Below are positions 3 to 64,000 of a stretch of DNA of 64,000 nucleotides, piece by piece. Below the pieces are notes generated by a model, which saw only the letters and a program-made list of their open reading frames with translations, was not told the origin of the DNA and searched no databases. A program made the translations under genes and the position numbers. How positions within the stretch are numbered: position 1 is the first letter of the stretch; each line of letters opens with the position of its first letter. Source of the DNA: a virus; IMG/VR virus record IMGVR_UViG_3300009082_000002, positions 1 through 64,000 of that record; one strand, 5' to 3'.

Positions 3-1352
3 CCGCCGCAACTCGCCCACCACACACACCGCAAGCTCATTGCCGAGCTTGCGCGCCTGTCTGACCGCCCGCTTGACCTGCTGCTCGAAGCACTGAAGCT
101 CGACGCGAGCGAGCGCGCCGCGGAGCTGTACGATCTCGCTGTCCGCTCCGCGCTCGACGGCAGACCCTTCTCGCGCCGCGACCTGCTACTCGACGGCTGG
201 ACGCGCAGCGAGGTTGAGTGGCATCGGATCAAGCTCTCCGAGTACGGGATCGAGTTGCGTTTCAGACGGGGCACGCGCCGCAACTTCCTGATCGAAGTTC
301 TCGACGCAGGTATCCCGCGCAGGGTGGCTTCGCGCTCGACGGAGCGGCGCGAGCTGGCTGCGCTCTGCAGAAAGAAGCGCAAGCGAAGGCATCCTTTTAG
401 CAACGTGTCAAAGGCGAGTGAAGTTGGCGAAGCCACTACGCAATCCACATGCAACGTGCCAAAGGACGGAAGGCATCCTTTTAATAACATGCCAAAGGCG
501 AGTGAAACCGGCGAAACGACGGAGCTTTCAGTCCGCAACGTGCCAAAGGACGACGGCGACCGCAACGTGCCAAAGGGCCGCAACGTGCCAAAGGCCATTG
601 AACGCCGCAGGCCGCTTGCCGATTCCGCGGACGACGACCTCGCGCGCGCGAGAGCGCGCGTCCCGCGCGGAGTAGATCAAGATCAGGAAGAAGAGGAAAA
701 GGAAGTCACCACCCGCCGTCGCTGCGGCGGCGTCGACGCCGCCGCACAGCAGTCAGTTTTTGGCAACCGCGACGAGCTGGTCCGTCTGCTGAAGCTCGAA
801 TTGCCGCGCGGTACTGACCGCAGCCGGCGGCAAAAGATCGTGAAGGCTCTCGGCGTGCGGTTCAATCGAGTGTACCGCGAGGCGTGGGAGAAGGCATACG
901 GGAAGCGGCCGGCGTCGGACTACTCGCGCGAGTTGCAGGACCTCGCGGTGTGGTGCGCCATCGAGGACGTCAAGCCTGCGGACTTCATCGCAGCAGTGAC
1001 CGCGGAGTACGCCTTCAGCGGTCGGCCGACAACGCCGGTCAACATCCTTTGTTCGCCCAAGGCCCGCGACCGCTACGTGGCCGCGAAGGCCAGGCCCAAG
1101 CCGCGCGCGGCCGCGAAGCACGCCGGCTTCGGTTACGACTACGCCCTCGACGTGCCGGACCTGAAGCGGCGGCTGGTGAAAGCGGGGCTCGACGGCGCGG
1201 AAGATCTTGACGAGAAGACGCTCGGCAGGATCGAGAAGCTCTGCCAGCACTGGCTCCGCGGCCGGCGTCCGGTGATGAGCGAGCGCGTCGAGCCTTTCGT
1301 CCGTTATGCGTACCGGAAGATCTATCGGCCTCGGTCTGGAAGGGAGGACTAG
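3..1352 (+). CDS. Replication initiator protein (lambda O-like), 5'-truncated by the window
   Basis: The frame is open from nt 3, so the ORF-track start at 255 is internal. wHTH-like N-terminal part (FSRRDLLLDGWTRSEVEWHRIKLSEYGIELRF), intragenic direct repeats encoding NVPK, and position directly upstream of DnaC-like loader, helicase and primase. Confidence 0.7.
   Translation, partial: PPQLAHHTHRKLIAELARLSDRPLDLLLEALKLDASERAAELYDLAVRSALDGRPFSRRDLLLDGWTRSEVEWHRIKLSEYGIELRFRRGTRRNFLIEVLDAGIPRRVASRSTERRELAALCRKKRKRRHPFSNVSKASEVGEATTQSTCNVPKDGRHPFNNMPKASETGETTELSVRNVPKDDGDRNVPKGRNVPKAIERRRPLADSADDDLARARARVPRGVDQDQEEEEKEVTTRRRCGGVDAAAQQSVFGNRDELVRLLKLELPRGTDRSRRQKIVKALGVRFNRVYREAWEKAYGKRPASDYSRELQDLAVWCAIEDVKPADFIAAVTAEYAFSGRPTTPVNILCSPKARDRYVAAKARPKPRAAAKHAGFGYDYALDVPDLKRRLVKAGLDGAEDLDEKTLGRIEKLCQHWLRGRRPVMSERVEPFVRYAYRKIYRPRSGRED
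401..594 (+). repeat. Iteron array 1 (putative origin): six copies of CAACGTGCCAAAGG
   Basis: Copies start at 401 (1 mismatch), 452, 485 (2 mismatches), 536, 563 and 581. The first four lie in an 84-bp duplication with ATCCTTTTA blocks. A purine-rich tract follows at about 670-706. Confidence 0.85.
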
Positions 1353-1353
1353 C

Positions 1354-2136
1354 GTGCTCAACTTCGAGCGGATCTCGCAGGAGGCCGAGCGTGTCCGAGA
1401 CGAGATCGACAGCTGCCCCCTCTGCGGTGGTCACGGCAGCACGGCGCCGGACCAGGATGACATCGACCCGGACACGCTGGAGCCGCGGCTTGTCGAGTGC
1501 CAGTGCTATCGACGCGCGGTCCTCCAGGTGAAGCTCATCGACGGCAACGTACCACTGGAGTTCAGGCGTGAGGCGCCTGCCGCATTCAAGGCCTTTTCGG
1601 CTGGGCCTAACGCGAGCATGGCGAAGCTCCTGCGAGAGTACGCCCGGCGGCTCGCTGCCGCTCGCAAGCACGGGCTCGGCCTCTTCCTCTATGGCGAGAA
1701 CGGTGTCGGTAAGACCCTCTGTGCGTCGTGGCTCCTGGGCCGCGCTGCGCGTGCTGGCTTCGAGGTGTTCTACTCCACGGCCGACGAGTGGCTCGAAGCG
1801 CAAAAACGCGCCTTCCGCGACGAGGAGTTTGCAGAGTGGCTTGGGCAGAAGGCCGACGCGGATTTTTTCGTGCTCGACGAGCTGGGCAAAGAACACCGAC
1901 GCGAGGACAGCACCTTCGCGCCTGCGCAGTTCGACCGCCTGCTTCGGTCGCGCGCCTCGGCCCTCATGCCGACCATCGTGATTTCGAACCTGCTGGATAG
2001 CCAGCGAGTCGAGGAAGTGCTCGGCAGTAGCTTGACCTCGATACTGTCTGGGCGACGCTTCAAGTTCGTGGAGTTCGAGCCCGGCGACTTCCGCGGCGCC
2101 GTGAGCTGGGAGGAGCTACTCGATGACGAAAGCTAG
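1354..2136 (+). CDS. dnaC: DnaC/IstB-like AAA+ helicase loader
   Basis: GTG start after GGAGG; CPLC...CQC zinc motif; Walker A GENGVGKT; Walker B FFVLDELG; PTIVISN. Confidence 0.85.
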   Translation: MLNFERISQEAERVRDEIDSCPLCGGHGSTAPDQDDIDPDTLEPRLVECQCYRRAVLQVKLIDGNVPLEFRREAPAAFKAFSAGPNASMAKLLREYARRLAAARKHGLGLFLYGENGVGKTLCASWLLGRAARAGFEVFYSTADEWLEAQKRAFRDEEFAEWLGQKADADFFVLDELGKEHRREDSTFAPAQFDRLLRSRASALMPTIVISNLLDSQRVEEVLGSSLTSILSGRRFKFVEFEPGDFRGAVSWEELLDDES

Positions 2137-3487
2137 CACGCGCTTCGACGCGGACCTGGAGCGCGCGATCCTCTCGCGCTGCCTGGAGAGCTCGCGCTTT
2201 CTCGGCGAGGCATCACGCATCGCTGGCCAGCACGACTTCTCGTCGCGCCCCCTCGGGTGGATCTTCGAGGAGCTATCACGCCACTACAAGCGGCGGCGCG
2301 AGGTGATGTCTGGGCGCACGCTACTTGTTCGGCTCAAGTCGAAGATAAAAGACCCGGAGAAACGCGACGTCTACGTCCGCACGTTGCGCGAGGTGCTGAC
2401 GTCCGAGGGTGTCGACGCGGGCGCAGCGCTCGACCTGTTGCGCGACTTCGTCCGATTCCAGCGGTTGCACGCGACCGCGGGCGAGCTGATCGACAAGCTG
2501 GAGTCCGGTGACCTCGACGCCGCGGAAGCCGCGGTTTCACGCCAGCATCGGCAGCGGGTTGGCGCCGCGGAGTACGAGCGTCTTGACTGGTGGGGTTCCT
2601 TCAAAACACGCATCGACCAGACACGCGTGGAGATCGAGGCCGGCAAGCGGCTGCGCATCCGCACCGGGATCAGGCGGCTCGACCGAATCATTCTCGGCAA
2701 CCATCTCGGCGAGCTGGCGATGCTGCTCGCGACTACCGGCAAGGGCAAGACGATCCTTCTCTTGAATTTCACGGTTGCCGCCGCGCTGCAAGGCTACGGC
2801 GGGATCTTCTTTGCGCTGGAGATGCCGGCGCGTCAGATCTGCCGGCGGCTCGACAGCCGCATCCTCAAGACGCCATATGCCCGGCTCCGTGCGATGGATT
2901 TTACGCCGGACGAGGATGAGGAGCTTGCGTCAATGCACGCGCGTCGGCGCCGTCTCTTCGAGGGGCAGATCGACGTGGTCAGTGTTCCAGTCAATCGGTG
3001 CTCGACGTCGCTGCTCGAAGAGATCATCGAGGAGCGGCGAGCCGAAGGCTTGCCTGTGGACTTTGTCATGTGGGATTCGCTGGACCACGTGAAGGTCGAC
3101 GGCCGCAGGCGGTACGAGTCGAAGCGCGTTGAGTCGACCGACGTCTATTGGTGGGCGAAGGGCTTGGCAATGGGGACGCCGGACATCCCGGGCCACGCGG
3201 CCTGGACCTCATGCCACGCGGGTCGCGAGTGGCGTTATCGTATCGCGACGCCAGAGGCTGCGGCCGAGGCATACGACAAGAGCCGCATAGCCGACACAGT
3301 GGTCAGCATCAACCAGAGCAGGGCCGAGGAGAAGGTCGGTCTGATGACCGCGTATCTGGCCAAGTACCGCGAAGGCCCGAGCTGGATTAAGATCCCGCTT
3401 TCGACCAACTTCGCCCTGATGACTTTCCGCGAATTGCGCGAAGCCGAGCGAGCCGAGCTGGCCAGTGAGGAGGATGACGATGACTGA
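2123..3487 (+). CDS. dnaB: DnaB-like replicative helicase
   Basis: RIRTGIRRLD, Walker A ATTGKGKT, FFALEM, Walker B VMWDSLD, ADTVVSINQ, LAKYREG. Confidence 0.9.
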   Translation: MTKASTRFDADLERAILSRCLESSRFLGEASRIAGQHDFSSRPLGWIFEELSRHYKRRREVMSGRTLLVRLKSKIKDPEKRDVYVRTLREVLTSEGVDAGAALDLLRDFVRFQRLHATAGELIDKLESGDLDAAEAAVSRQHRQRVGAAEYERLDWWGSFKTRIDQTRVEIEAGKRLRIRTGIRRLDRIILGNHLGELAMLLATTGKGKTILLLNFTVAAALQGYGGIFFALEMPARQICRRLDSRILKTPYARLRAMDFTPDEDEELASMHARRRRLFEGQIDVVSVPVNRCSTSLLEEIIEERRAEGLPVDFVMWDSLDHVKVDGRRRYESKRVESTDVYWWAKGLAMGTPDIPGHAAWTSCHAGREWRYRIATPEAAAEAYDKSRIADTVVSINQSRAEEKVGLMTAYLAKYREGPSWIKIPLSTNFALMTFRELREAERAELASEEDDDD

Positions 3488-3908
3488 AGCGCCGAAGAAG
3501 AACGACTGCGTCCACGCGACCGGAGTCGACCGCTGCCTCCTTGACCAGGGTCGGATCTGCGAGTCGCCCGGGTTGTGCAACAACTACCAGGTCCCAAAGA
3601 CGGTACGACCGGAGCCGGTGCCGGATACGTGGTGCGTGCCAAGCTTCACGCCGACGCCGCCCGGCTGCAAGCCGGACTTCCCGGTTCCGTTTGATGAGTA
3701 CCCGCGTTTACCAGTCGGCACCATTATCATTGCTGGCGACATGGTCTTCAAGGTCGCAGCGGTCAAGGAAGGCGGCGGTATGATCGCTTGCCACCTCTGC
3801 GGCATGACCTCGACGTGGGTGAAGCGGATGCGAAAGAGGTACGGCACCAAAGCTCTCCGCGCAGCCGAGATGGCGCGGCGGCGGCGGCAGGAGCGCAACA
3901 AGCCGTGA
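3480..3908 (+). CDS. Hypothetical Cys-rich protein
   Basis: Overlaps the helicase stop and the primase start (coupled). Confidence 0.6.
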   Translation: MTEAPKKNDCVHATGVDRCLLDQGRICESPGLCNNYQVPKTVRPEPVPDTWCVPSFTPTPPGCKPDFPVPFDEYPRLPVGTIIIAGDMVFKVAAVKEGGGMIACHLCGMTSTWVKRMRKRYGTKALRAAEMARRRRQERNKP

Positions 3909-4909
3909 GGTTCGACGTCGCCGAGCACCTCGCGGCACACACCGAGTTCCGTGAGCGAAGTGGACACAGCGGGCCGCAGCTCAACGCTTGCGCCTGCCCC
4001 TACTGCGGCGACGAGGGCTGGCATCTCTACGTTAACGCGAAGTCGGGTCTGTGGAAGTGCTTCAAGTGCGGCGAGGGCGAGAACAGATCCTTTGTCCACC
4101 TCATCGCGAAGTACATGGGCGCATCGCTGTCGGAGGCCTTGGCCGTCCTTCGCGACGCGCCGCCGCTTCGCGCGCCAGCGCACGGCAACCTCGGCAAGCT
4201 CCGCACTGCGCTCGATTCGATGAGCTTTGACACAGGCGGCGACGTGCACCTCATTGACGCGCCGCTGCCCGGTCCGTTTGTGCCGTGCTGGGATGGGATG
4301 CGATGGCGAGTGCACGCTGCGATCAAGCGGCGTCGGTTCAAGCGGGAAACTTTGCGTGAGTTCGGGATCGGCTACTGTCTGATTGGCCTTTACGCGCGCC
4401 GTATCATCATCCCGATCAGGACAGGGCGTGAGCGCGCGTTCCAGGCTCGCGTCTTCAATTCCGAGGTTGCTGGCCCGAAGTATCTTTCGCCCGACGTCAA
4501 CATGAGCCGGCTCCTCTTCGGCGAGCCCTGGCTCCTGTCTGGGACCGAGGAGGTAGTGGTCGTCGAGGGCGCCTTCGATGCGATGCGGCTCCACGAGTAC
4601 GGGCTTCGCGCGGTCGCCCTCTTCGGGAAATCCGTCAGCGACAGGCAAGCCAGCATCATCGCGGACCGCGCGCGCGCTGCCGTGGTCATGCTTGACGCGG
4701 ATGACCCGACCGCGGAGCGTGCAGCCTGGGACTGTGCTGCGCGGCTGGCTTCCTTGATGGGCCGCGTCCGCGTCGCCCGCCCGCCTGCTGGGAAGGACCC
4801 GGACACGAGCACTCGCGAGGACGTGGCGGTTGCGCTGCGCGAAGCCCTCGCGAGCGCGGAGCCCTGGCGGGCTGCGCGGCGGCGACTGGGCGGGCTTCGA
4901 TCCTACTAG
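3905..4909 (+). CDS. dnaG: DNA primase (zinc finger + TOPRIM)
   Basis: CPYCGD...H...WKCFKC zinc finger; PKYLSP; VVVEGAFDAM; VMLDAD; KDPD. GTG start at 3905 overlaps the upstream stop. Confidence 0.92.
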   Translation: MRFDVAEHLAAHTEFRERSGHSGPQLNACACPYCGDEGWHLYVNAKSGLWKCFKCGEGENRSFVHLIAKYMGASLSEALAVLRDAPPLRAPAHGNLGKLRTALDSMSFDTGGDVHLIDAPLPGPFVPCWDGMRWRVHAAIKRRRFKRETLREFGIGYCLIGLYARRIIIPIRTGRERAFQARVFNSEVAGPKYLSPDVNMSRLLFGEPWLLSGTEEVVVVEGAFDAMRLHEYGLRAVALFGKSVSDRQASIIADRARAAVVMLDADDPTAERAAWDCAARLASLMGRVRVARPPAGKDPDTSTREDVAVALREALASAEPWRAARRRLGGLRSY

Positions 4910-4939
4910 CCCGGCTGCACCGATCCTTGCGCGAGGAAT

Positions 4940-5044: not shown

Positions 5045-6274
5045 GTGGCCGCAAAGGAAACTGACAAGATGGGGCGCAAGCGGGTCGAGTGCCTGCTCTG
5101 CGGCGAGTTCTTCCACGCACTGGCGCCGCACTTGGGGCGCAAGCACTCGATGAGCGTGGAGCAGTATCTCGGATGGTGTGCGGAGCAAGGGGTCAAGGAG
5201 CCGATGACGATCTCGGCCTTCGCCAGCTCCAAGATCGACGCCACGCGGAAGGCGCGCAAGCGGGCGCGGCCGAATACCGAGACCGAGGCCAGCGCGCCAG
5301 GCACCGCGGCTGCCGCACCGGTCGAGGACAAGTCTGTCGAGGTGCTCGACTTCGGCGGGTTTGAGATCGGAGTCCGCAGCCTGAAGGCGATCCCGGAGCG
5401 GGCGCGCGCTCACATCCCGGCCCACGACGAGAAGTGGGAGCCCGACGCTGAGCTCCTCGCTCGACTCGCCGAGGCGGTGGAGTTCGATGACGTCGCGATG
5501 CTGGTAGGTCCGACCGGCGCTGGCAAGACCTCGTTGGTCGCGGAGCTGGCAGCCATGCTCAATATGCCGATGGTCCGTATCCAGTGCGACGGCTCCACGA
5601 GCTACGGCAAGCTCTTCGGCAAGGAAAAGGTCGGGCGCGACCCGGCGACTGGTGAAAAGGGGATGTACTTCAAGCGCGGTATCATCCCGACCGCGGGTGT
5701 GACCGGGGCCTTCATCGTGATCGACGAGGCCGACGCGCTCAACCCCGACGTTCGCATCTCGCTCCACGAGTGCCTGGAGAAGGACGCCCTCGGCCGGCGG
5801 AAGTGTACGCTCGAAGTCGGCGACGACATTGCCGAGGTGGTCTGGTTCCACCCGGCCACGCGGTTCTTCCTCACTGGCAATAACCTCGGCTCGGATTCCG
5901 ATGGTCTCTACGGCGGCACGGATGGCGCGCCTAACCTCGCCTTCCTCGACCGTTGCGTTCGCATCCCGATCACCTACCCGGACCGCGCGGCCATCACCGA
6001 GATCTGCCAGTCGAAGTCCGGGCTGGACCGCCCAAGCTGCAAGCGCATCGCGGACGCGGTCCACGAAATCCTGGCAATGCACACGCAGTCGGGCCTGCCG
6101 TGGGTACTCTCGGTCCGCACGGCAATCCGGCTGGCGGTGCGGATGCGGGTATACCAGGAGCGCGGACTGGAGCGTGCGGTCGCAATCGAGCACGGCATCC
6201 TGGACCAGATTCCGGTTGCAGAGCTGCGCGAGGACGTCAAGGGCATCCTCCAGCGCGTGGGCCTCACGGCGTAG
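5045..6274 (+). CDS. CobS/MoxR-like AAA+ ATPase with N-terminal C2H2 (Ros/MucR-like) zinc finger
   Basis: CLLCGEFFHALAPHLGRKHSMSVEQY; Walker A GPTGAGKT; Walker B IVIDEAD; HPATRFFLTGN; NLAFLDR. Confidence 0.88.
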   Translation: MAAKETDKMGRKRVECLLCGEFFHALAPHLGRKHSMSVEQYLGWCAEQGVKEPMTISAFASSKIDATRKARKRARPNTETEASAPGTAAAAPVEDKSVEVLDFGGFEIGVRSLKAIPERARAHIPAHDEKWEPDAELLARLAEAVEFDDVAMLVGPTGAGKTSLVAELAAMLNMPMVRIQCDGSTSYGKLFGKEKVGRDPATGEKGMYFKRGIIPTAGVTGAFIVIDEADALNPDVRISLHECLEKDALGRRKCTLEVGDDIAEVVWFHPATRFFLTGNNLGSDSDGLYGGTDGAPNLAFLDRCVRIPITYPDRAAITEICQSKSGLDRPSCKRIADAVHEILAMHTQSGLPWVLSVRTAIRLAVRMRVYQERGLERAVAIEHGILDQIPVAELREDVKGILQRVGLTA

Positions 6275-6287
6275 GGAGGAGCAAGCA

Positions 6288-8576
6288 ATGCGCACCGAGA
6301 AGACGACGGGCATGAAGACGATTCGCGGGATCGAGGCCAGCACTGGCGGCTACTTCGAGACCCTGGCAAAGACGCTGACCCGCTCGACCGGGATGAGAAT
6401 CATCCCGACGGTGGGCGAGTGTTGTACGGACTGCAAGACCTTCCTCAAGCTCCCCATTCTGGCGGAGTACCTGCCGGAGAGCGCGCGGCAGATCCTCGAC
6501 GGTCTGCTCGACCACGAGAGCGCCCACGTCCGCTGCTGCAAGCTGGACGAGCAGGACGGCCGTGCTCCGCTCTGGAAAGCGTGGACCGAGATCGTGGCTA
6601 GCGGCAAGGCTGACCGGCACTGGCAGGGGATGGTGAACGCCCTCATGGATGCGCGCGACGAGGAGCGGATGCTCCGGCTCTACCCGGGCGCGGCCGAGAA
6701 CTTCAAGGCTGCCATTGCGGATGCGACCGAGAAGCGGGTCAAGCAGGGCGAGTCGGCTTCGGCCGCGATGCTGTACCACGACATTGGCTGCGTAGTCTAC
6801 GCCCGCCTTCGCGGCTTCGACTCCCGCGCATGGGGCACGGCGGCCAACCGGATTATCGACACGGTCCTGTCTGCCGAGATGGCGACCGCCGCTCGGATGG
6901 TCGCTGGCTTCGAGTCGCCCGTGGACTTCATCCGTCTGGCTCGCGAGATTCTGGACCGGCTGGAGGAAGCGAGCGAGGAGCAGAAGTCCGAGCCGCAAGG
7001 CGACCCGGGCGATGGCGATGGCGATGGCGCGGATGGCGATGGCGAGAGCGGAGAAGATGCGGACCAGGAGCAGGAGCAGGGTGACGAGGGCGATGGCACT
7101 GGCGACGACGGCCAGGGCGACGAAGACCAGGACGAGAGCGAAGACCAGGACGAGAGCGAAGACCAGGGCGAAGACCAGGGCGAAGACCAGGGCGACCAGA
7201 GCGAGAGCGAAGACCAGAGCGAGAGCGAGAGCGAGAGCGAGGACGAAGACCAGGGCGAGAGCGAAGACCAGGGCGAGGGCGAGAGCGAAGACCAGGGCGA
7301 GAGCAAAGACCAGGGCGAGAGCAAAGACCAGAGCGAGAGCAAAGACCAGGGCGAGAGCAAAGACCAGAGCGAGAGCGAGAGCGAGAGCGAAGACCAGGGC
7401 GAGAGCGAAGACCAGGGCGAGAGCGAAGACCAGGGCGAGAGCGAAGACCAGGGCGAGAGCGAGAGCGAAGACCAGGGCGACGATGAGGACCAGGAAGCTG
7501 CCGGCCAGCTGCTGTTGGAGAGCGAGGACCGCGACGCGCTGCGTGACGCGCTGGACGAGGACCCGGGTACGGAGGATCTGGTCAAGCAGGATGCGCGCGA
7601 GGAGCTGAAGCGGGAGGCGGGCGAGCTGGACCCCGCCGCGCACGACATCCACATCCCGGACCCCGCGGCCAAGGCGCGCGACCAGGTCATCGACCCGCTG
7701 GACAGAATGCTGCTGCTGCGCGACCGAGAGGTCGCGCTCAACCGCTTCAACGACCAGCGGGCCGAAGGGCGCCAGGCCACGGCACAGCTCCGCGCTCGTC
7801 TGCTGCGCGCGCTCAAGGCGCGCCAGGCACCGCGCTTGCGGACCGAGATGGAAGACGGTCCCTTGCCGGACGAGGGCTCGCTTTATAAGTTGTTCGGCCA
7901 CGGCGACGACGACCGCGTTTTCCGCGGGTTCCAGAAGGGCATTGAAATCAGTACGGCGGTCAGCATTCTCGTTGACCAGAGTGGTTCGATGGCGAGTGGC
8001 AATCGGATTGACGTCGCGCGGGCCGCGGTCATCGCGCTGGCCGAGACGCTCAACGCGCTTCGCATCCCGTTCGAGATCATCGGCTGGGATACGACCCTCG
8101 AAGTCGGGCCGTTTATGAGCGGGTCCGGATTCAATCGTCCCTATCCCCAGCGGTATCGGATTTTCAAGGCCTTCGCGCAGAGCTACGACAAGGCGACAAA
8201 GATCCGTATCGGTTCGATGGAGGCGTATGAAGAGAACTGCGACTCCGAGGCCGTGGCCTTTGCCGCGGACCGGCTGGCGCAGCGGACCGAAAAGCGGAAG
8301 GTTTTGCTTGTGCTTTCCGATGGCTCGCCGTCCTGCCCTGACGTGGAGTCCAGCGTGGACGGCAAGAACATCCGCAAGGTCGTCAACTGTTGCTTCGACC
8401 GTGGGATCGAGGTAGTGGGCGTGGGCATTCTTACGGCCGCACCCGCTCACTTTTATCCGGTGTTCATCGCGGTCATGGAGTTGAAAGATCTCGCTCCGAA
8501 GCTGGTGAAGATCCTCGATGCCCTGCTCCGCAAGGGGAAGCGGCTTCTCAAGGTCGGCACCGGCAAGGTCGCGTGA
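6288..8576 (+). CDS. CobT-like vWA (MIDAS) protein with N-terminal HExxH domain and long acidic linker
   Basis: ATG at 6288 after GGAGGAG; HESAH motif; ILVDQSGSM MIDAS; VLSDGSP; IEVVGVGI; adjacent to the AAA+ gene. Confidence 0.87.
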   Translation: MRTEKTTGMKTIRGIEASTGGYFETLAKTLTRSTGMRIIPTVGECCTDCKTFLKLPILAEYLPESARQILDGLLDHESAHVRCCKLDEQDGRAPLWKAWTEIVASGKADRHWQGMVNALMDARDEERMLRLYPGAAENFKAAIADATEKRVKQGESASAAMLYHDIGCVVYARLRGFDSRAWGTAANRIIDTVLSAEMATAARMVAGFESPVDFIRLAREILDRLEEASEEQKSEPQGDPGDGDGDGADGDGESGEDADQEQEQGDEGDGTGDDGQGDEDQDESEDQDESEDQGEDQGEDQGDQSESEDQSESESESEDEDQGESEDQGEGESEDQGESKDQGESKDQSESKDQGESKDQSESESESEDQGESEDQGESEDQGESEDQGESESEDQGDDEDQEAAGQLLLESEDRDALRDALDEDPGTEDLVKQDAREELKREAGELDPAAHDIHIPDPAAKARDQVIDPLDRMLLLRDREVALNRFNDQRAEGRQATAQLRARLLRALKARQAPRLRTEMEDGPLPDEGSLYKLFGHGDDDRVFRGFQKGIEISTAVSILVDQSGSMASGNRIDVARAAVIALAETLNALRIPFEIIGWDTTLEVGPFMSGSGFNRPYPQRYRIFKAFAQSYDKATKIRIGSMEAYEENCDSEAVAFAADRLAQRTEKRKVLLVLSDGSPSCPDVESSVDGKNIRKVVNCCFDRGIEVVGVGILTAAPAHFYPVFIAVMELKDLAPKLVKILDALLRKGKRLLKVGTGKVA
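7101..7483 (+). repeat. Low-complexity tandem repeat (about 18-bp GAAGACCAGGGCGAGAGC units, encoding EDQGES)
   Basis: Directly visible; this 383-nt stretch contains no T. Confidence 0.95.
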
Positions 8577-39518: not shown

Positions 39519-39916
39519 CGAAGAGGAAGGCCGAGCTGCCAGATCTGACGAGGACCGCACGCGCGGTTGAAGCGCTCGACGCAGAGTACGCGAAGCCCGA
39601 CAGCGAGATCGACTGGAGCAAGATCATCGAGCTGGACAGGGAAGTCGGCCGCGCCTTCGGCGAGGACACCGCGGACCGGAACAACCAGAGGACGTGCGAG
39701 CAATGCGTCCGCGCAGGCAGACCGAGCCCAGGACCAGGGTTCGAGCTGGCGCCCGTCCGCAGGTGGGTTGAGCAGTGGAAGAAGAAGAAGCGCAGCACCA
39801 ACACCAGCAGCGAGCAGGGGGGTGAAGGTGGTAGGACCAACCGCGGAAAGGATGGGCCGGGACGCAGCGGAGAAGGTGAAGCAAAGCGCGTTGTATGGAG
39901 TACCCCCGAAAGATAG
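39515..39916 (+). CDS. Hypothetical protein
   Basis: ATGA coupling; CEQC; low-complexity tail. Confidence 0.5.
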   Translation: MTKRKAELPDLTRTARAVEALDAEYAKPDSEIDWSKIIELDREVGRAFGEDTADRNNQRTCEQCVRAGRPSPGPGFELAPVRRWVEQWKKKKRSTNTSSEQGGEGGRTNRGKDGPGRSGEGEAKRVVWSTPER

Positions 39917-40201
39917 GGATAGAAGAAGACGGGCCAGCGCGAGAAGAGATGGGCCAGCAAGACAGGAAGAGAGGCAGGAGAAGGACATGGAGAAGAATGG
40001 GGCAAGATGCAGGGCGGGCCCGCGGAGAGGGGAAAGGGGGAAGCCCTACCTCGCGCCCACTCCGGCCGCCTCCAGTCACATCCGGCCACATCCCTCCGGA
40101 GGGAAAAGGATGAATCCCTCCCCCCGCTGCTCTCGCCGCGGTCCCCACCCCGGCCCGGCGCCGCACCAAAAGCCTAGCCCGCAAGCCGCCGCGCCACGCT
40201 G

Positions 40202-40335
40202 CAACGTGCCAAAGGATAGCTAACTTCGCATTATCACAACAGAACACCAGCGCCAACGTGCCAAAGGCCCAACGTGCCAAAGGATAGACAACTCCGCATT
40301 ATCACACGATATTCGCCGCGACAACGTGCTAAAGA
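40202..40335 (+). repeat. Iteron array 2: four copies of CAACGTGCCAAAGG in a 68-bp duplication
   Basis: Exact copies at 40202, 40254 and 40270; a 2-mismatch copy at 40322. The first and third are each followed by ATAG..AACT.CGCATTATCACA. Confidence 0.9.
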
Positions 40336-40454
40336 CCCCAGCGCCCAAGGCGCGCGGCTCCGGCGCACCAAGCCCAGCGCCGGGAGCGCGGGCCACGCGT
40401 AGCCAAGGCGCGCGTGGTGCGTGAGCCGAGCCCGGCGCGCTGGCAGCTCCGCGT

Positions 40455-40660
40455 CCGCATCCTGCCACCACCTGGGCAAGCCTGGGCCAGCCCGCCACCT
40501 GCCACGCACTGCCACGCGGGCCGGCCTGCCACCTGCCACACGCTGCCACGTTCTGCCACGCCACGCGGCCAGCTTGAGCTTGCTCGCCTCCTACCGCATC
40601 CTGCCACCAACCAGGCAAGCCGGGCCAAGCCCACCTCCTACCACATCCTGCCACCAACCA
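40455..40660 (+). repeat. CTGCCAC heptamer array
   Basis: Nine exact copies (40462, 40499, 40509, 40526, 40533, 40543, 40553, 40601, 40648); longer repeat CCTACC(G/A)CATCCTGCCACCAACCA at about 40590 and 40637. Confidence 0.85.
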
Positions 40661-41007
40661 TGCCCGGGTTCAGCCAGGCCCGGCAATGGCAGGAGGCCAG
40701 GATGGGAAACCGCGGTGCCTCGGGCCGGTAGGATGCCGCGCAGGATTGGCTCTCATCCTTCCGATCCTGCCCGAACAGGCCGGCCCTTGCCCCGTCGCCC
40801 GCCAGCCCGCGCGTGCTCGGGATTGCCTGGCCCCCTCCCGATTCAAGCACGCCCCGGAAACCCGTCACTAAAAGCCAGGCTTTAATAACCCAGGCCTGGG
40901 CCAGCCGCACGGCTGCCTCCCGTGCCCACGTTTCCGGAAAAATTTTTTGGCGCGAGGACTCGGTACCTCCGCTGTGCTCTTCGCGAACCATCGCGCGGAG
41001 GTGCTTG

Positions 41008-41256
41008 ATGGCGGCAAGAAGCTGTAAACGCGCCCTGCGCTGGCTCATCGAAGACGCTCCACTCCTGGGCTTCGCGCGCGGCTGCGCGTTCCATTTTGTC
41101 TGGCGCGGCCCGCTGCCGCGCTGGGCGCAGGACGCCGCGCCGTGGCTCATGGCCTTCGCGCTGCGGTCCTGGCCGCTGCGGGTCAGCAAGCTCGTCGAGA
41201 CAGACCACGGGCAACGCGGCGTCGAGATCTCCAACCGCTACTGGCTGGGCGCATAA
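41008..41256 (+). CDS. Hypothetical protein
   Basis: GGAGG RBS; first gene after the non-coding region. Confidence 0.55.
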   Translation: MAARSCKRALRWLIEDAPLLGFARGCAFHFVWRGPLPRWAQDAAPWLMAFALRSWPLRVSKLVETDHGQRGVEISNRYWLGA

Positions 41257-44082: not shown

Positions 44083-45279
44083 ATGATCAGGGTCGATCAA
44101 CGCGACTTTTCGGCGGCGTTGGAGGCAGCGCGGCAAGCCTGTAGCCGGGTAGGCTCGCTCCCCATCCTGGCGCAGGCGAGCGTTGTCTGCCACGACGGCG
44201 AGTTGAAGATCGACTGCACCGATCTCGACGTGCGGCTGGTCTGCACGCTGGCCGCGGCAGGCGAGGGCAAGTTCCTTCTGCCTGCCGCGAAGCTGGCCAA
44301 GGTCGTAAAGCCGCAGGGCGCGAAGAAGGCTTCGCGCCAGATCGTGATCGGCGTCGAGGACGAAAAGCCCATCGTCATGATCGACGGCGCGAAGGTGAAG
44401 TTCCCGCTCCAGTGCGCGCCGGAGGACTGGCCTGTCGAGGCCGTCTGTGAGTGGAAGCTCCGCGGCCACTACGCGACGGCCGAGACGCTGCGCGCGTTGA
44501 AGTACTGTCTGCCGGCTGCTTCCACCGACGATATGCGCCCGCACCTGGGCTGTGTGTTCTTCTTCGGCTCGCGGCTCATCTCCACGGACGGGCACCGGCT
44601 CCACATCGTGCACCTCGGCGGCGAGCCACACGAGAGCACGTGGCTTGCGCGTCAGGGCGTGTGCCACCTCGTCAAGCTCTGTGACGCCGAGTCCTTCGAT
44701 CTCTTCGCGGTCGATGGCGAGGATCACATCGGTCGTTGTCGCGTGACGTGGCCAGGTCGTGTGCTCGTCCGCGACACGCCGGTCGGTGCCATCGATCTGA
44801 ACTTCGACCGAGTCATCGGTGACACGCGCGCATCCCGCGGCATCGTCTTCAATCTGACGCGCGTGGATCTGCTCGACCGGTTGAAGAAAGCGAAGGCGAT
44901 GCTCGACAAGAGCGCGGATCTGATCGTGGAGTACGAGTCGGGACGCTGGCTGAAAATGGAGGGGTGCGAGCGTGTCGCGGACAAGACCACGGTGGAGTGG
45001 AAGCAACCGCACGACGGCGTCGAGGACAATCGCGAGAAGTTCGTCCCAGACTGTCAGCCGAGCGACGTGAGCGACGAGGAGTGGGCCGAGCATGCGCACG
45101 CCGAGCCACAGTCCTGTCACTTCGCGCAGCCGGCCAAGTTCTGCGTTGGGCTCGACTACGCGATTGACGCGCTGGCCGATGGTGACGACCTGGTCGAGCT
45201 GAAGTTCACCGACTCGCTGCTGCCGATCCACTTGCGCAGCGGCGATTATGAATCGATCGTCATGCCGATCAGGATCTAG
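44083..45279 (+). CDS. dnaN: DNA polymerase III beta sliding clamp-like protein
   Basis: SLPILA; TDLDVRL; AASTDDMRPHL; ISTDGHRL; YAIDAL; C-terminal IVMPIRI. Confidence 0.85.
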   Translation: MIRVDQRDFSAALEAARQACSRVGSLPILAQASVVCHDGELKIDCTDLDVRLVCTLAAAGEGKFLLPAAKLAKVVKPQGAKKASRQIVIGVEDEKPIVMIDGAKVKFPLQCAPEDWPVEAVCEWKLRGHYATAETLRALKYCLPAASTDDMRPHLGCVFFFGSRLISTDGHRLHIVHLGGEPHESTWLARQGVCHLVKLCDAESFDLFAVDGEDHIGRCRVTWPGRVLVRDTPVGAIDLNFDRVIGDTRASRGIVFNLTRVDLLDRLKKAKAMLDKSADLIVEYESGRWLKMEGCERVADKTTVEWKQPHDGVEDNREKFVPDCQPSDVSDEEWAEHAHAEPQSCHFAQPAKFCVGLDYAIDALADGDDLVELKFTDSLLPIHLRSGDYESIVMPIRI

Positions 45280-61416: not shown

Positions 61417-64000
61417 ATGATCCTCGCAGCGCGCAAGCTAGGTCCGATGGATGCCATCTTCCGGTCGATGACCGACGAGCAACTTGCGACCGCGAAGGCG
61501 GTCGCTCGCGAAGCTCTCCAGTGGTCGGGCGTACTCAAGGCGGCAGATGTCTATCTCGGCGTCGACGAGGATCTCTCCGCGACGCTCCTGCACAAGTGGG
61601 ATGCCAAAGCGAAGGAGCAGATTGACAAAGGCGCCAAGGTGCTTGCGAAGGCGCAGAAGGGCGAGGTTGTCCAGTCCACGCTGAAGGGTACGTTGTGGAA
61701 GCTCGGCAAGGTGATGGGCGAGGAGTATGGCGAGGCCGTGTTGCCCGACTTCATCCGCGCGACGCTACTGACCTGGAGTCTGGCAAGCAAGGAAACGATG
61801 GGCCGACTTCAGCTCAAGTGGTCAACCGAACTTGTCGACCAGAACGCCGCAGCTCGGCTTTCCAAGTTCCACACCTATTGGGTCGGAAAGCACTACGAAA
61901 CTAGCATTGCGAATTCGCTCCAGATCGCCACGCGGCAGACCATCATCGAAGGCGGACTTGCTGGCACGCAGGCAGCCAACGCCTTCCGCGACATCGCCTC
62001 GAAGTACTTGGCCGGCAAGGGCGAGTCCTTCCCCGAGGTTCCGAAGGGCTGGACTGGCACGACGGACGAGTACTTTGCTGGGCTCGCGAATCACGTCGGC
62101 ACACAGGCCCGCGTCTTCAGCCGACTCGAATCCTACGAGCGCGTCGGGATCACGACCTACACCATCGTCGCCGTCCTCGACAACCGGACGAGCGATATTT
62201 GCCAGATGATGCACGGGCAGACATTCACGGTCGAGCAAGGTCTCGGCGTCGCGGAGACCTGGACGGAGGAGTACACTCCAGAGGCAGTCAAGGAGAAGGC
62301 CGGCTGGATGCGCGCGCAGGACGCAGCCAAGCTCGCCGGGCTGTCGGACTACAAGCCCGGCACGGTCTCACCAAAGATCAGCCCGAAGGGAATGGACGCA
62401 CTGGCCGAGGCTGGCATGGCGCTTCCGCCGTACCACTTCCGCTGCCGGACAGACATCGTCGCGGAGCAGGAGGTCATGACCTTCCCGAGCGGCGGCGAGC
62501 CGACTTACAAGCCGGTGAAGCCGCCGAAGGCCGAATCGCCGAAGCCGCCGCCGGCCGCGCCTACGCCGCCATCCAAGGCGACGGGCGGATTCCCGTGGCA
62601 GATGTCCCAGCTCACGTCGGTTGAGAAGTCCGCGAAGGGAATGCACGCCAAAGCCTTCTTCCACGACCCGGACGGCAACGAGTGGATGTTCAAGCCCGCG
62701 CCGGAGGGGCTGCGTTTTCGTGCAGAGGTCGAGAAGCTGGCTGCCGATGCGGCGCGCGCGCTCGAAGTCGACACGGCCGACGTCTTCATGGTTGAGCACG
62801 AAGGAAAGATCGGGACGATTCAACGCCTCTTCAAAGACATCAAGCACGACGGGCTCACCAAGGTCGGCGTCCAGGGCTTGACGCAGGAGCAGGTCGCACA
62901 GCTCCAGCGCCAGCACATTTTTGACTGGCTCATCGGGAACAACGACGGCCACATCGACAACTTCCTCGTCTTGAAGGACGGCAAGCTCGTCGGCATCGAC
63001 CGAGGGCAGGCCTTCCGCTATTTCAAGACAGACAAACTCGCGCTCGACTACAACCCCAATGCGCGCTATGGGATCAAGGTCTTCTACAACGACGTCTTCG
63101 CAGCGGCACGCGACGGCAAGTTGCCGACTGGCGTAGAGATGCTCGGGCTCGACGCGCCGGAGATTGCCAGTCTGGTTAAGAAGGCCGAGTCGCTGTCCGA
63201 CGAGCAGTGGCTTACGATCTGGCGGCCGTACATCGACGGCGCGATGAAGAACAAGAGCCTCGCCTACGGCTCGCGCGCCGCCTTTGAACGCGAGCTACTT
63301 CGACGGAAGAACCAGCTAGGGAGTGATCTCGACGAGTTCTATCGCGGCCTCCTCGGAAAAGGACGCGCGGCGCGTCGGACAGCGGAGACGCAGAAGGGTG
63401 TCCTGACTCCGGTTGACAAGTCCTTCGTGAGTGAGATGCAAGCCGCGAAGAACCGCGGCAAGTCCGTGCTCGTCGCGTCGGAAGAGATCGAAAACGGCAA
63501 CGTCCTCGTCTACACCTACGCGGACGGGACGGTCGTGGTCGAAGGCAAGATGCGGAAGCTCGCCGACGAGATGGTGCGGGCGCAGCTTGCTGGCCCGCAG
63601 GCTGCGGGCGCAACGCCGGGGACCGACTCGCTGTGGGACGACGTGCTCTCCTGCATCAAGTCTTTCAATCACCATCTCGGGCCAGGCGGCAGCGGTACGA
63701 TCCCGGACAGCAAGCAACGTCTTTTCGTGCGGACGCTCAACGCGGCAAAAAAACAATGGGCCGAAGGCTGGACCGTACCGGGCGGGACGCAGGCTGGACA
63801 GATGGGTGAATACTACGTCAAGCTCCTCCAGCAGTATGGGACCGAGTCGCTCGGGATGCGGCTGACCACAACGACAAAGAAAATGCTCGGCGTCAAGAAC
63901 CAGCCGTTCAAGGTGCCAGGCGTGAAGGCCAAGGCACTCGCTGGTCGCGTGAAGCGGTCGAGCATCGAGAGAATCTACGAGGAGGAGCGCAAGCTGGTCC
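61417..64000 (+). CDS. MuF/SPP1 gp7-type head morphogenesis protein fused to a HipA/PI3K-like kinase domain (3'-truncated by the window)
   Basis: Translated by hand; the frame is open to the window end. MuF motifs AVLDNRTSDIC (62170) and PPYHFRCR (62425); Pro-rich linker; WMFKP, DWLIGNNDGHIDNF, GIDRG. Confidence 0.85.
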   Translation, partial: MILAARKLGPMDAIFRSMTDEQLATAKAVAREALQWSGVLKAADVYLGVDEDLSATLLHKWDAKAKEQIDKGAKVLAKAQKGEVVQSTLKGTLWKLGKVMGEEYGEAVLPDFIRATLLTWSLASKETMGRLQLKWSTELVDQNAAARLSKFHTYWVGKHYETSIANSLQIATRQTIIEGGLAGTQAANAFRDIASKYLAGKGESFPEVPKGWTGTTDEYFAGLANHVGTQARVFSRLESYERVGITTYTIVAVLDNRTSDICQMMHGQTFTVEQGLGVAETWTEEYTPEAVKEKAGWMRAQDAAKLAGLSDYKPGTVSPKISPKGMDALAEAGMALPPYHFRCRTDIVAEQEVMTFPSGGEPTYKPVKPPKAESPKPPPAAPTPPSKATGGFPWQMSQLTSVEKSAKGMHAKAFFHDPDGNEWMFKPAPEGLRFRAEVEKLAADAARALEVDTADVFMVEHEGKIGTIQRLFKDIKHDGLTKVGVQGLTQEQVAQLQRQHIFDWLIGNNDGHIDNFLVLKDGKLVGIDRGQAFRYFKTDKLALDYNPNARYGIKVFYNDVFAAARDGKLPTGVEMLGLDAPEIASLVKKAESLSDEQWLTIWRPYIDGAMKNKSLAYGSRAAFERELLRRKNQLGSDLDEFYRGLLGKGRAARRTAETQKGVLTPVDKSFVSEMQAAKNRGKSVLVASEEIENGNVLVYTYADGTVVVEGKMRKLADEMVRAQLAGPQAAGATPGTDSLWDDVLSCIKSFNHHLGPGGSGTIPDSKQRLFVRTLNAAKKQWAEGWTVPGGTQAGQMGEYYVKLLQQYGTESLGMRLTTTTKKMLGVKNQPFKVPGVKAKALAGRVKRSSIERIYEEERKLV

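Follow-up and report, generated by a model that had tools for sequence, protein, structure and literature searches.

Co-varying iteron arrays within a putative initiator gene and 40 kb downstream of it in an uncultivated phage

In-gene and remote iterons in described systems

In phage λ, ori-λ sits in the linker-coding part of the O gene; λ has this one origin and is not known to have a remote array. The α protein of the satellite phage P4 binds type I iterons at ori as well as at crr, the latter being composed of two direct repeats of ~120 bp that are located about 4.5 kb from ori and are needed in cis. Extra clusters of initiator-binding iterons away from the origin are also represented by P1 incA, F incC and the remote RctB sites of Vibrio cholerae Chr2. 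In the Bacillus phage SPP1, gp38 binds to direct repeats in oriL, which lies inside gene 38, and in oriR, which sits in one of the longest intergenic regions, and gene 38 is followed by the genes for the loader gp39 and the DnaB-type helicase gp40 (PMC6316719, PMC3485210). Bound to oriR, gp38 has been proposed to stall replication forks and to trigger the theta-to-sigma switch, a role that is still a model (PMC6316719, PMC3485210).

The DNA analysed here, referred to as the window, comprises the first 64 kb of the 107,406-bp record of an uncultivated phage (G000). The 123-bp terminal repeat of this record falls inside the gene that contains the first of two iteron arrays (array 1), and the record is therefore taken to be an assembly that is circular, or circularly permuted, and has been cut open at an arbitrary position. 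The features of the locus are compiled in Table 1.

Table 1. Features of the G000 locus. Positions refer to the window unless stated otherwise.
Feature	Position	Strand	Remarks
UvsW-like SF2 helicase	record 105538-107025 (L050:2539-4026)		directly upstream of the initiator-like ORF; ResIII, Helicase_C, weak UvsW_N
Initiator-like ORF P0001	1..1352	+	474 aa; 5' part continues over the 123-bp assembly overlap to record ~107211
Array 1, six CAACGTGCCAAAGG iterons	401..594	+	one frame (N-V-P-K), residues ~158-223; probable primary origin
Purine-rich, lower-GC tract	662..710	+	53% GC; downstream of array 1; equivalents after array 1 in L029, G003 and G004
DnaC/DnaI-like AAA+ helicase loader	1306..2136	+	overlaps the end of the initiator-like ORF; N-terminal Cys motif
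DnaB-type replicative helicase	2123..3487	+	Pfam/PHROG profile matches
DnaG-type primase	3788..4909	+	Pfam/PHROG profile matches
Gene-free gap	39917..41008	.	~1.1 kb; 66-69% GC; T on the + strand 6-17% per 100-bp bin (genome mean 16%)
Array 2, four iterons	40202..40335	+	two tandem 68-bp units; local 50% GC trough, flanks 73-79% GC
Nine CTGCCAC heptamers	40462..40654	+	nested 10/17/34/47-bp repeats; clustered only here
33-bp element GCGTG..GATTGCCTG..CCTCC	40809..40841	+	aligns with G003 111412-111444; ~170 bp before the next ORF
Sliding-clamp-like gene	44083-45279		phrog_947

As in SPP1, the putative origin-binding protein, the loader and the DnaB-type helicase are encoded in this order, direct repeats are found within the putative initiator's own ORF, here as six in-frame copies, and the same repeats recur in a distant long intergenic region, here in the ~1.1-kb gap and likewise in the related phage G003. 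Moreover, the genes run in one direction and recombination nucleases are phage-encoded, as in the fork-stalling/theta-to-sigma model. Unlike in SPP1, however, the two arrays are separated by 40-49 kb (G000/G003) rather than by 12-13 kb, no clear AT-rich unwinding element lies beside either G000 array, the loader is of the DnaC/DnaI-type AAA+ and not gp39-like, and the genome has 65% GC, is ~107 kb long and encodes its own Pol III α and clamp. Gp38 contains a Phg_2220_C domain (PF09524), whereas P0001 has no Pfam match, and P0001 and gp38 show no detectable sequence similarity (hhalign probability 0.04%). As no such similarity is detected, the resemblance to SPP1 is to be regarded as an analogy and not as family membership.

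The iterons are located, as in λ O, in the part of the gene that codes for a predicted linker between an N-terminal DNA-binding and a C-terminal domain, and, as at ori-λ, a purine-rich tract of lower GC comes after them; the helicase loader is likewise encoded by the gene that follows. Unlike λ O, P0001 has no Phage_rep_O match in Pfam (E<=0.01) and no PHROG match. With P4 ori/crr the locus has in common two separated iteron clusters, presumably for one initiator, the remote one being tandemly duplicated (here a 68-bp unit, twice), although P4, which is able to persist as a plasmid, has a primase-helicase fusion as initiator and only a tenth of the distance between its clusters. An extra iteron cluster away from the origin is also the scheme of P1 incA, F incC and the RctB sites of Chr2, but the replicons concerned are maintained stably and possess partition systems, whereas no such system was found here. 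The first-pass annotation had compared the locus with λ O, P1 incA and F incC; SPP1 oriL/oriR is the closer precedent (PMC6316719, PMC3485210).

Two arrays that change sequence together

The 14-mer CAACGTGCCAAAGG matches ten times in the window when up to two mismatches are allowed, always on the + strand, with start positions 401, 452, 485, 536, 563 and 581 in array 1 and 40202, 40254, 40270 and 40322 in array 2, whereas dinucleotide-preserving shuffles yield 0.35 expected matches and a maximum of 3. The six plus four equally oriented copies of the first-pass annotation are thus recovered, and its impression that the motif is confined to these two places extends to the complete record: a scan of all 107,406 bp gave no further copy with up to two mismatches and no sign of a widespread scatter, and the 9-mer TGCCAAAGG is restricted to arrays 1 and 2 as well. 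Successive iterons are spaced by 51, 33, 51, 27 and 18 bp in array 1 and by 52, 16 and 52 bp in array 2. The duplication of iteron pairs spaced 51-52 bp apart, which had also been claimed, is seen as a 68-bp unit present twice in tandem in array 2 (TRF, 81% matches) and as an 84-bp unit present twice in array 1 (58/84 identical), where three closer copies are added. As the spacers of array 1 are unrelated to those of array 2 in G000, the arrays are not recent copies of each other. Array 2 was said to lie in the only long non-coding region; according to crude GC3-based gene calls the gap is the longest gene-free stretch of the window, although not the sole one.

Three relatives allow the arrays to be compared between genomes. 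L029, a 2.4-kb metagenome contig whose initiator-like protein is 75% identical to P0001, keeps seven 14-mers essentially unchanged: five are exact, and the other two deviate at the 5' end by one and by two mismatches, respectively. The intervening spacers have diverged heavily. Furthermore, the coding iterons all use the codons AAC GTG CCA AAG, a choice with a probability of 0.027 per copy at genome codon usage, and CCA is a rare codon that accounts for 10% of the proline codons of the genome. The retention of the 14-mers next to diverging spacers and the fixed codon set are evidence for a constraint on the coding iterons that would act at the DNA level.

G003, a syntenic phage of 113,077 bp, is more distant, its initiator-like protein being 39% identical and its replication and structural proteins 40-88% identical to those of G000. 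It does not contain the G000 14-mer CAACGTGCCAAAGG. Instead, the orthologous linker (61798-61943) has four copies of (G/A)ACCCCACAAAGG, plus one in inverted orientation. Four more copies of this word are located at 110620-110723, in the initial part of a ~950-bp gene-free gap (110578-111530); like the gap of G000, this gap falls in the variable interval that separates the replication module from the packaging module. Array 2 is located 48.8 kb downstream of array 1 in G003 as compared to 39.8 kb in G000. Both arrays have switched together to ACCCCACAAAGG, i.e. they co-vary in relatives. In G004, a linear contig of 107,749 bp (95% complete), AACACAAAGGC occurs three times in forward and three times in inverted orientation, only inside the initiator-like gene within the assembled 95%. 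This is the only relative in which array 1 is seen and a counterpart of array 2 is not; its contig ends fall in the very interval expected for array 2, blastn of the G000 gap against this 95% complete contig, broken at that place, finds no counterpart, and the two-site reading is not refuted by it. Each of the three iteron words is absent from the other genomes, and all three have a CAAAGG core in common.

Other searches did not enlarge this set: single-protein searches for related loci with the initiator-like protein or the clamp gave no match, protein P0004 had no match among viral contigs, and a search with a DnaB alignment returned no genomes beyond G003 and G004. A pattern scan of viral contigs for paired iterons matched only L009 (12808-12983) and L010 (3638-3750), which we rejected as kin; both are low-GC contigs in which the 14-mer is part of 18-bp tandem repeats coding for NVPKAN hexapeptides in a 2,233-aa ORF, and this looks like a coincidence of sequence and not like kinship.

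The two arrays exist, they are exclusive to these two places and they co-vary between relatives. Their co-variation indicates that one sequence-specific factor reads both, and very probably one phage protein docks at both arrays. Array 2 is a genuine second locus for the reader of the in-gene iterons, as had been surmised, in view of the co-variation in G003 and of the iterons kept between diverged spacers in L029.

The initiator-like protein and its genomic context

P0001 belongs to a tiny family with 7 representatives among 1.84 billion proteins, and it has no family match in Pfam (E<=0.01), PHROG or NCBIfam, no match in a sequence search of the PDB and none in a Foldseek search against the PDB at E<=0.001. 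An AlphaFold2 model, built from 8 sequences, predicts an N-terminal winged helix (helices 83-88 and 93-105, β wing 108-124), a disordered linker with pLDDT <50 (residues 151-276) and a helical C-terminal domain with pLDDT ~90; array 1 codes for part of the disordered linker. The N-terminal domain matches the N-terminal domain of primosomal DnaB from Geobacillus (Z 7.2, rmsd 3.2, 87 aligned residues), an initiator from an MDR plasmid (Z 5.5) and the N-terminal domain of DnaD (Z 5.4), all values being below the confident range, and its structural matches are generic winged helices that include MarR-, ArsR- and TFE-type regulators. Replisome organisers of the DnaD/primosomal DnaB type combine a DnaD-like N-terminal winged helix with a C-terminal DDBH2 domain; for the C-terminal domain of P0001, DnaD-like domains give Z 4.3 and 3.8, again below the confident range, and a wide structure search gave nothing above Z 6.1. 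The ESM Atlas leads from P0001 to HTH_36-type proteins, for which Pfam gives no confirmation. The initiator role that the first-pass annotation had assumed is supported by the gene position and the predicted fold, and by no family match in Pfam, PHROG or NCBIfam.

The gene heads the loader-helicase-primase set, the iterons lie in its linker-coding part, and the product is predicted to contain a winged helix with a lineage-specific recognition helix; for these reasons P0001 is taken as the iteron reader, and the data point to array 1 as an in-gene origin of the λ/SPP1 type. The predicted recognition helix differs among G000, G003 and G004, while L029, which has the iterons of G000, shows one substitution, so that the differences in the helix appear to match the iteron words. 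The identity of the binding protein, the firing of array 1 as an origin and the action of array 2 are inferred.

Against the initiator reading it can be held that winged helices are just as characteristic of transcription factors and that the fold matches are weak (Z<8). P0001 might accordingly be a transcription regulator that uses the in-gene sites for autoregulation and array 2 for the control of transcription into the small-gene block beginning at 41009. This is unlikely, as the P0001 gene overlaps the loader gene and heads the loader-helicase-primase set and as repeats in the linker-coding region are the pattern of λ O and SPP1 gp38, although the fold also fits MarR-, ArsR- and TFE-type regulators. 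A σ70-like TAGACA-17-GATATT is indeed present in a spacer of array 2 and a new co-oriented gene block begins after the gap, but the end of array 2 lies 476 bp (G000) or 694 bp (G003) upstream of the sole conserved promoter-like element.

The genes of G000 are nearly all on the + strand according to the crude GC3-based calls, and the replication module continues further downstream with a DnaE-type Pol III α, an SSB-like protein, SbcCD-like nucleases and an exonuclease. There is no close cultured phage, the best matches of Pol III α being ~35% identical. The UvsW-like helicase is encoded directly upstream of P0001; in T4, UvsW eliminates R-loops at origins and favours the transition to the recombination-dependent mode of replication. 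Together with the SbcCD-like nucleases and the exonuclease, the UvsW-like helicase constitutes a toolkit for recombination-based replication restart. Several further observations concern this region. A stretch of ~230 bp at record positions 107030-107283 (L050:4031-4284), comprising the upstream region and the first codons of the initiator-like ORF, is near-identical in G000 and L029, its conservation clearly exceeding that of the gene body, and might have a regulatory function or act as a structured leader. The N-terminal CxxC...CxC motif of the loader, a probable zinc domain, is conserved in all three phages, and a 915-aa CobT-like/VWA-domain protein encoded in the middle of the replication module (5829-8576) is conserved in G003 and G004. 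The clamp-like gene has no blastp counterpart among the crude ORF calls of G003, which either lacks it or in which the caller missed it.

The first-pass annotation had also suggested a phage-plasmid lifestyle, in which array 2 would serve as copy-control locus by titration or handcuffing, like P1 incA. This framing is not borne out: profiles for Phage_integrase, ParB_N and AAA_31 detect no integrase, ParB or ParA-type gene in the complete G000 record. An extra, equally oriented iteron cluster away from the origin recalls P1 incA and F incC, and the pairing of distant sites by one initiator is known for P4 ori/crr; nevertheless, the genome, which encodes its own Pol III α, clamp, SSB and nucleases, has the appearance of a virulent phage genome, and a separation of 40-49 kb far exceeds plasmid prophage replicons, which makes a copy-control locus quite unlikely.

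The detrended cumulative GC skew has its minimum at 2,888 in G000, 62,261 in G003 and 60,222 in G004, i.e. 0.4-4 kb from array 1 in the three genomes, the corresponding maxima being found 42-50 kb downstream of this array. Such a profile is compatible with an origin at array 1 and with an end point of some kind in the region of array 2, but it is only a hint, as the skew is confounded by the composition of gene modules and the three genomes are related and not independent.

The gene-free gap and the possible role of array 2

The gap opens with the 3' part of a purine-rich block (39800-40040) that is followed by C-rich DNA, and it contains neither a tRNA nor an Rfam match (39917-41008). The ORF behind it starts at 41009 and is preceded by GGAGG. 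Within the gap, an alignment with G003 is obtained solely for the 33-bp element, which is a candidate promoter or regulatory site. At the place of the heptamers G003 has another repeat set, GAGCATCC and CCCAGGCCC. Both gaps show strand asymmetry (39800-40900 in the window; 110600-111100 in G003, L027), with 4-17% T per 100-bp bin and a purine-rich block of ~200 bp (70-78% A+G) that adjoins C-rich DNA (40-49% C). We speculate that a transcript of the gap in + direction, being purine-rich, could favour stable RNA-DNA hybrids (R-loops). No clear AT-rich unwinding element is seen beside either array: array 1 is followed by the lower-GC tract and array 2 forms the GC trough given in Table 1, and the AT-rich islands sit elsewhere in the genome. 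Such islands (25-33% GC, with runs of A and T) are found at 4939, 37192, 51716 and 53153, the last being TTTACA-17-TATAAT, and are probably host-type promoters and terminators.

A repeat-rich gap with nine CTGCCAC copies and strong strand asymmetry recalls the repeat-flanked ends of T7-type genomes, and the single gene direction with small early-type ORFs after the gap would fit as well. The gap might thus harbour the physical genome ends or a packaging site, i.e. a terminal repeat or pac, with the iterons coupling replication to the ends or simply adjoining them. This is improbable, since the 123-bp terminal repeat within the initiator-like gene looks like a circular-assembly overlap and not like a real end, the ends of G003 likewise join, through a 14-bp overlap located elsewhere, and the co-variation with the in-gene iterons points to the initiator and not to the terminase. 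That the arrays have arisen by chance or by recent duplication or insertion of a mobile repeat and share no function hardly deserves credence: young internal tandem duplications are present in both arrays and the same 14-mer forms NVPKAN repeats in unrelated low-GC viral contigs, but ten matches stand against 0.35 expected from shuffles, the two arrays have unrelated spacers, the iterons have been kept where the spacers diverge, and a relative with another word has the same two-site layout, a co-variation that effectively refutes this explanation.

Our preferred reading is that P0001 is the origin-binding protein of this clade, array 1 the primary origin and array 2 a second docking site in the manner of SPP1 oriL/oriR, and we regard it as fairly probable, though by no means assured. 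According to this reading P0001 would be a replisome organiser whose N-terminal winged helix reads the iterons of 12-14 bp; array 1 would be the primary origin, to which the adjacently encoded loader, DnaB and primase would be recruited; and array 2, 40 kb downstream in the gene-free gap, would provide a second docking site for the same protein. The most likely role of array 2 would then be that proposed for SPP1 oriR, i.e. that of a secondary origin and/or a tightly bound barrier. Such a barrier would stall forks arriving from array 1 and thereby aid the switch to recombination-dependent concatemer synthesis. Much more tentatively, the locus may be a bipartite system in which the in-gene origin fires and a programmed fork barrier or a pairing partner is provided by the co-evolving array 40-50 kb downstream, a possibility that we consider doubtful in this specific form.

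A two-site arrangement as such is already known; what is new at this locus is that the initiator family is an orphan, that the arrays clearly co-vary and that they are 40-49 kb apart in phages of ~110 kb. The layout is the same as in SPP1, with an initiator that has no detectable similarity to gp38 and in phages that bring their own replisome. The analysis assigns a probable function to an orphan protein family, and the fact that the two sites change their sequence together argues that the remote array is under selection and is not a relic. Moreover, the clade offers natural specificity variants, i.e. three iteron words around a CAAAGG core and matching changes in the predicted recognition helix, which suit binding and swap experiments. 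If the bipartite reading is true, array 2 would time the switch from origin-dependent to recombination-dependent replication, and would represent, without a relation in sequence and possibly through convergence, a counterpart of the unproven SPP1 oriR model, set in a small clade of high-GC phages of ~110 kb with their own Pol III replisome and an unclassified initiator family.
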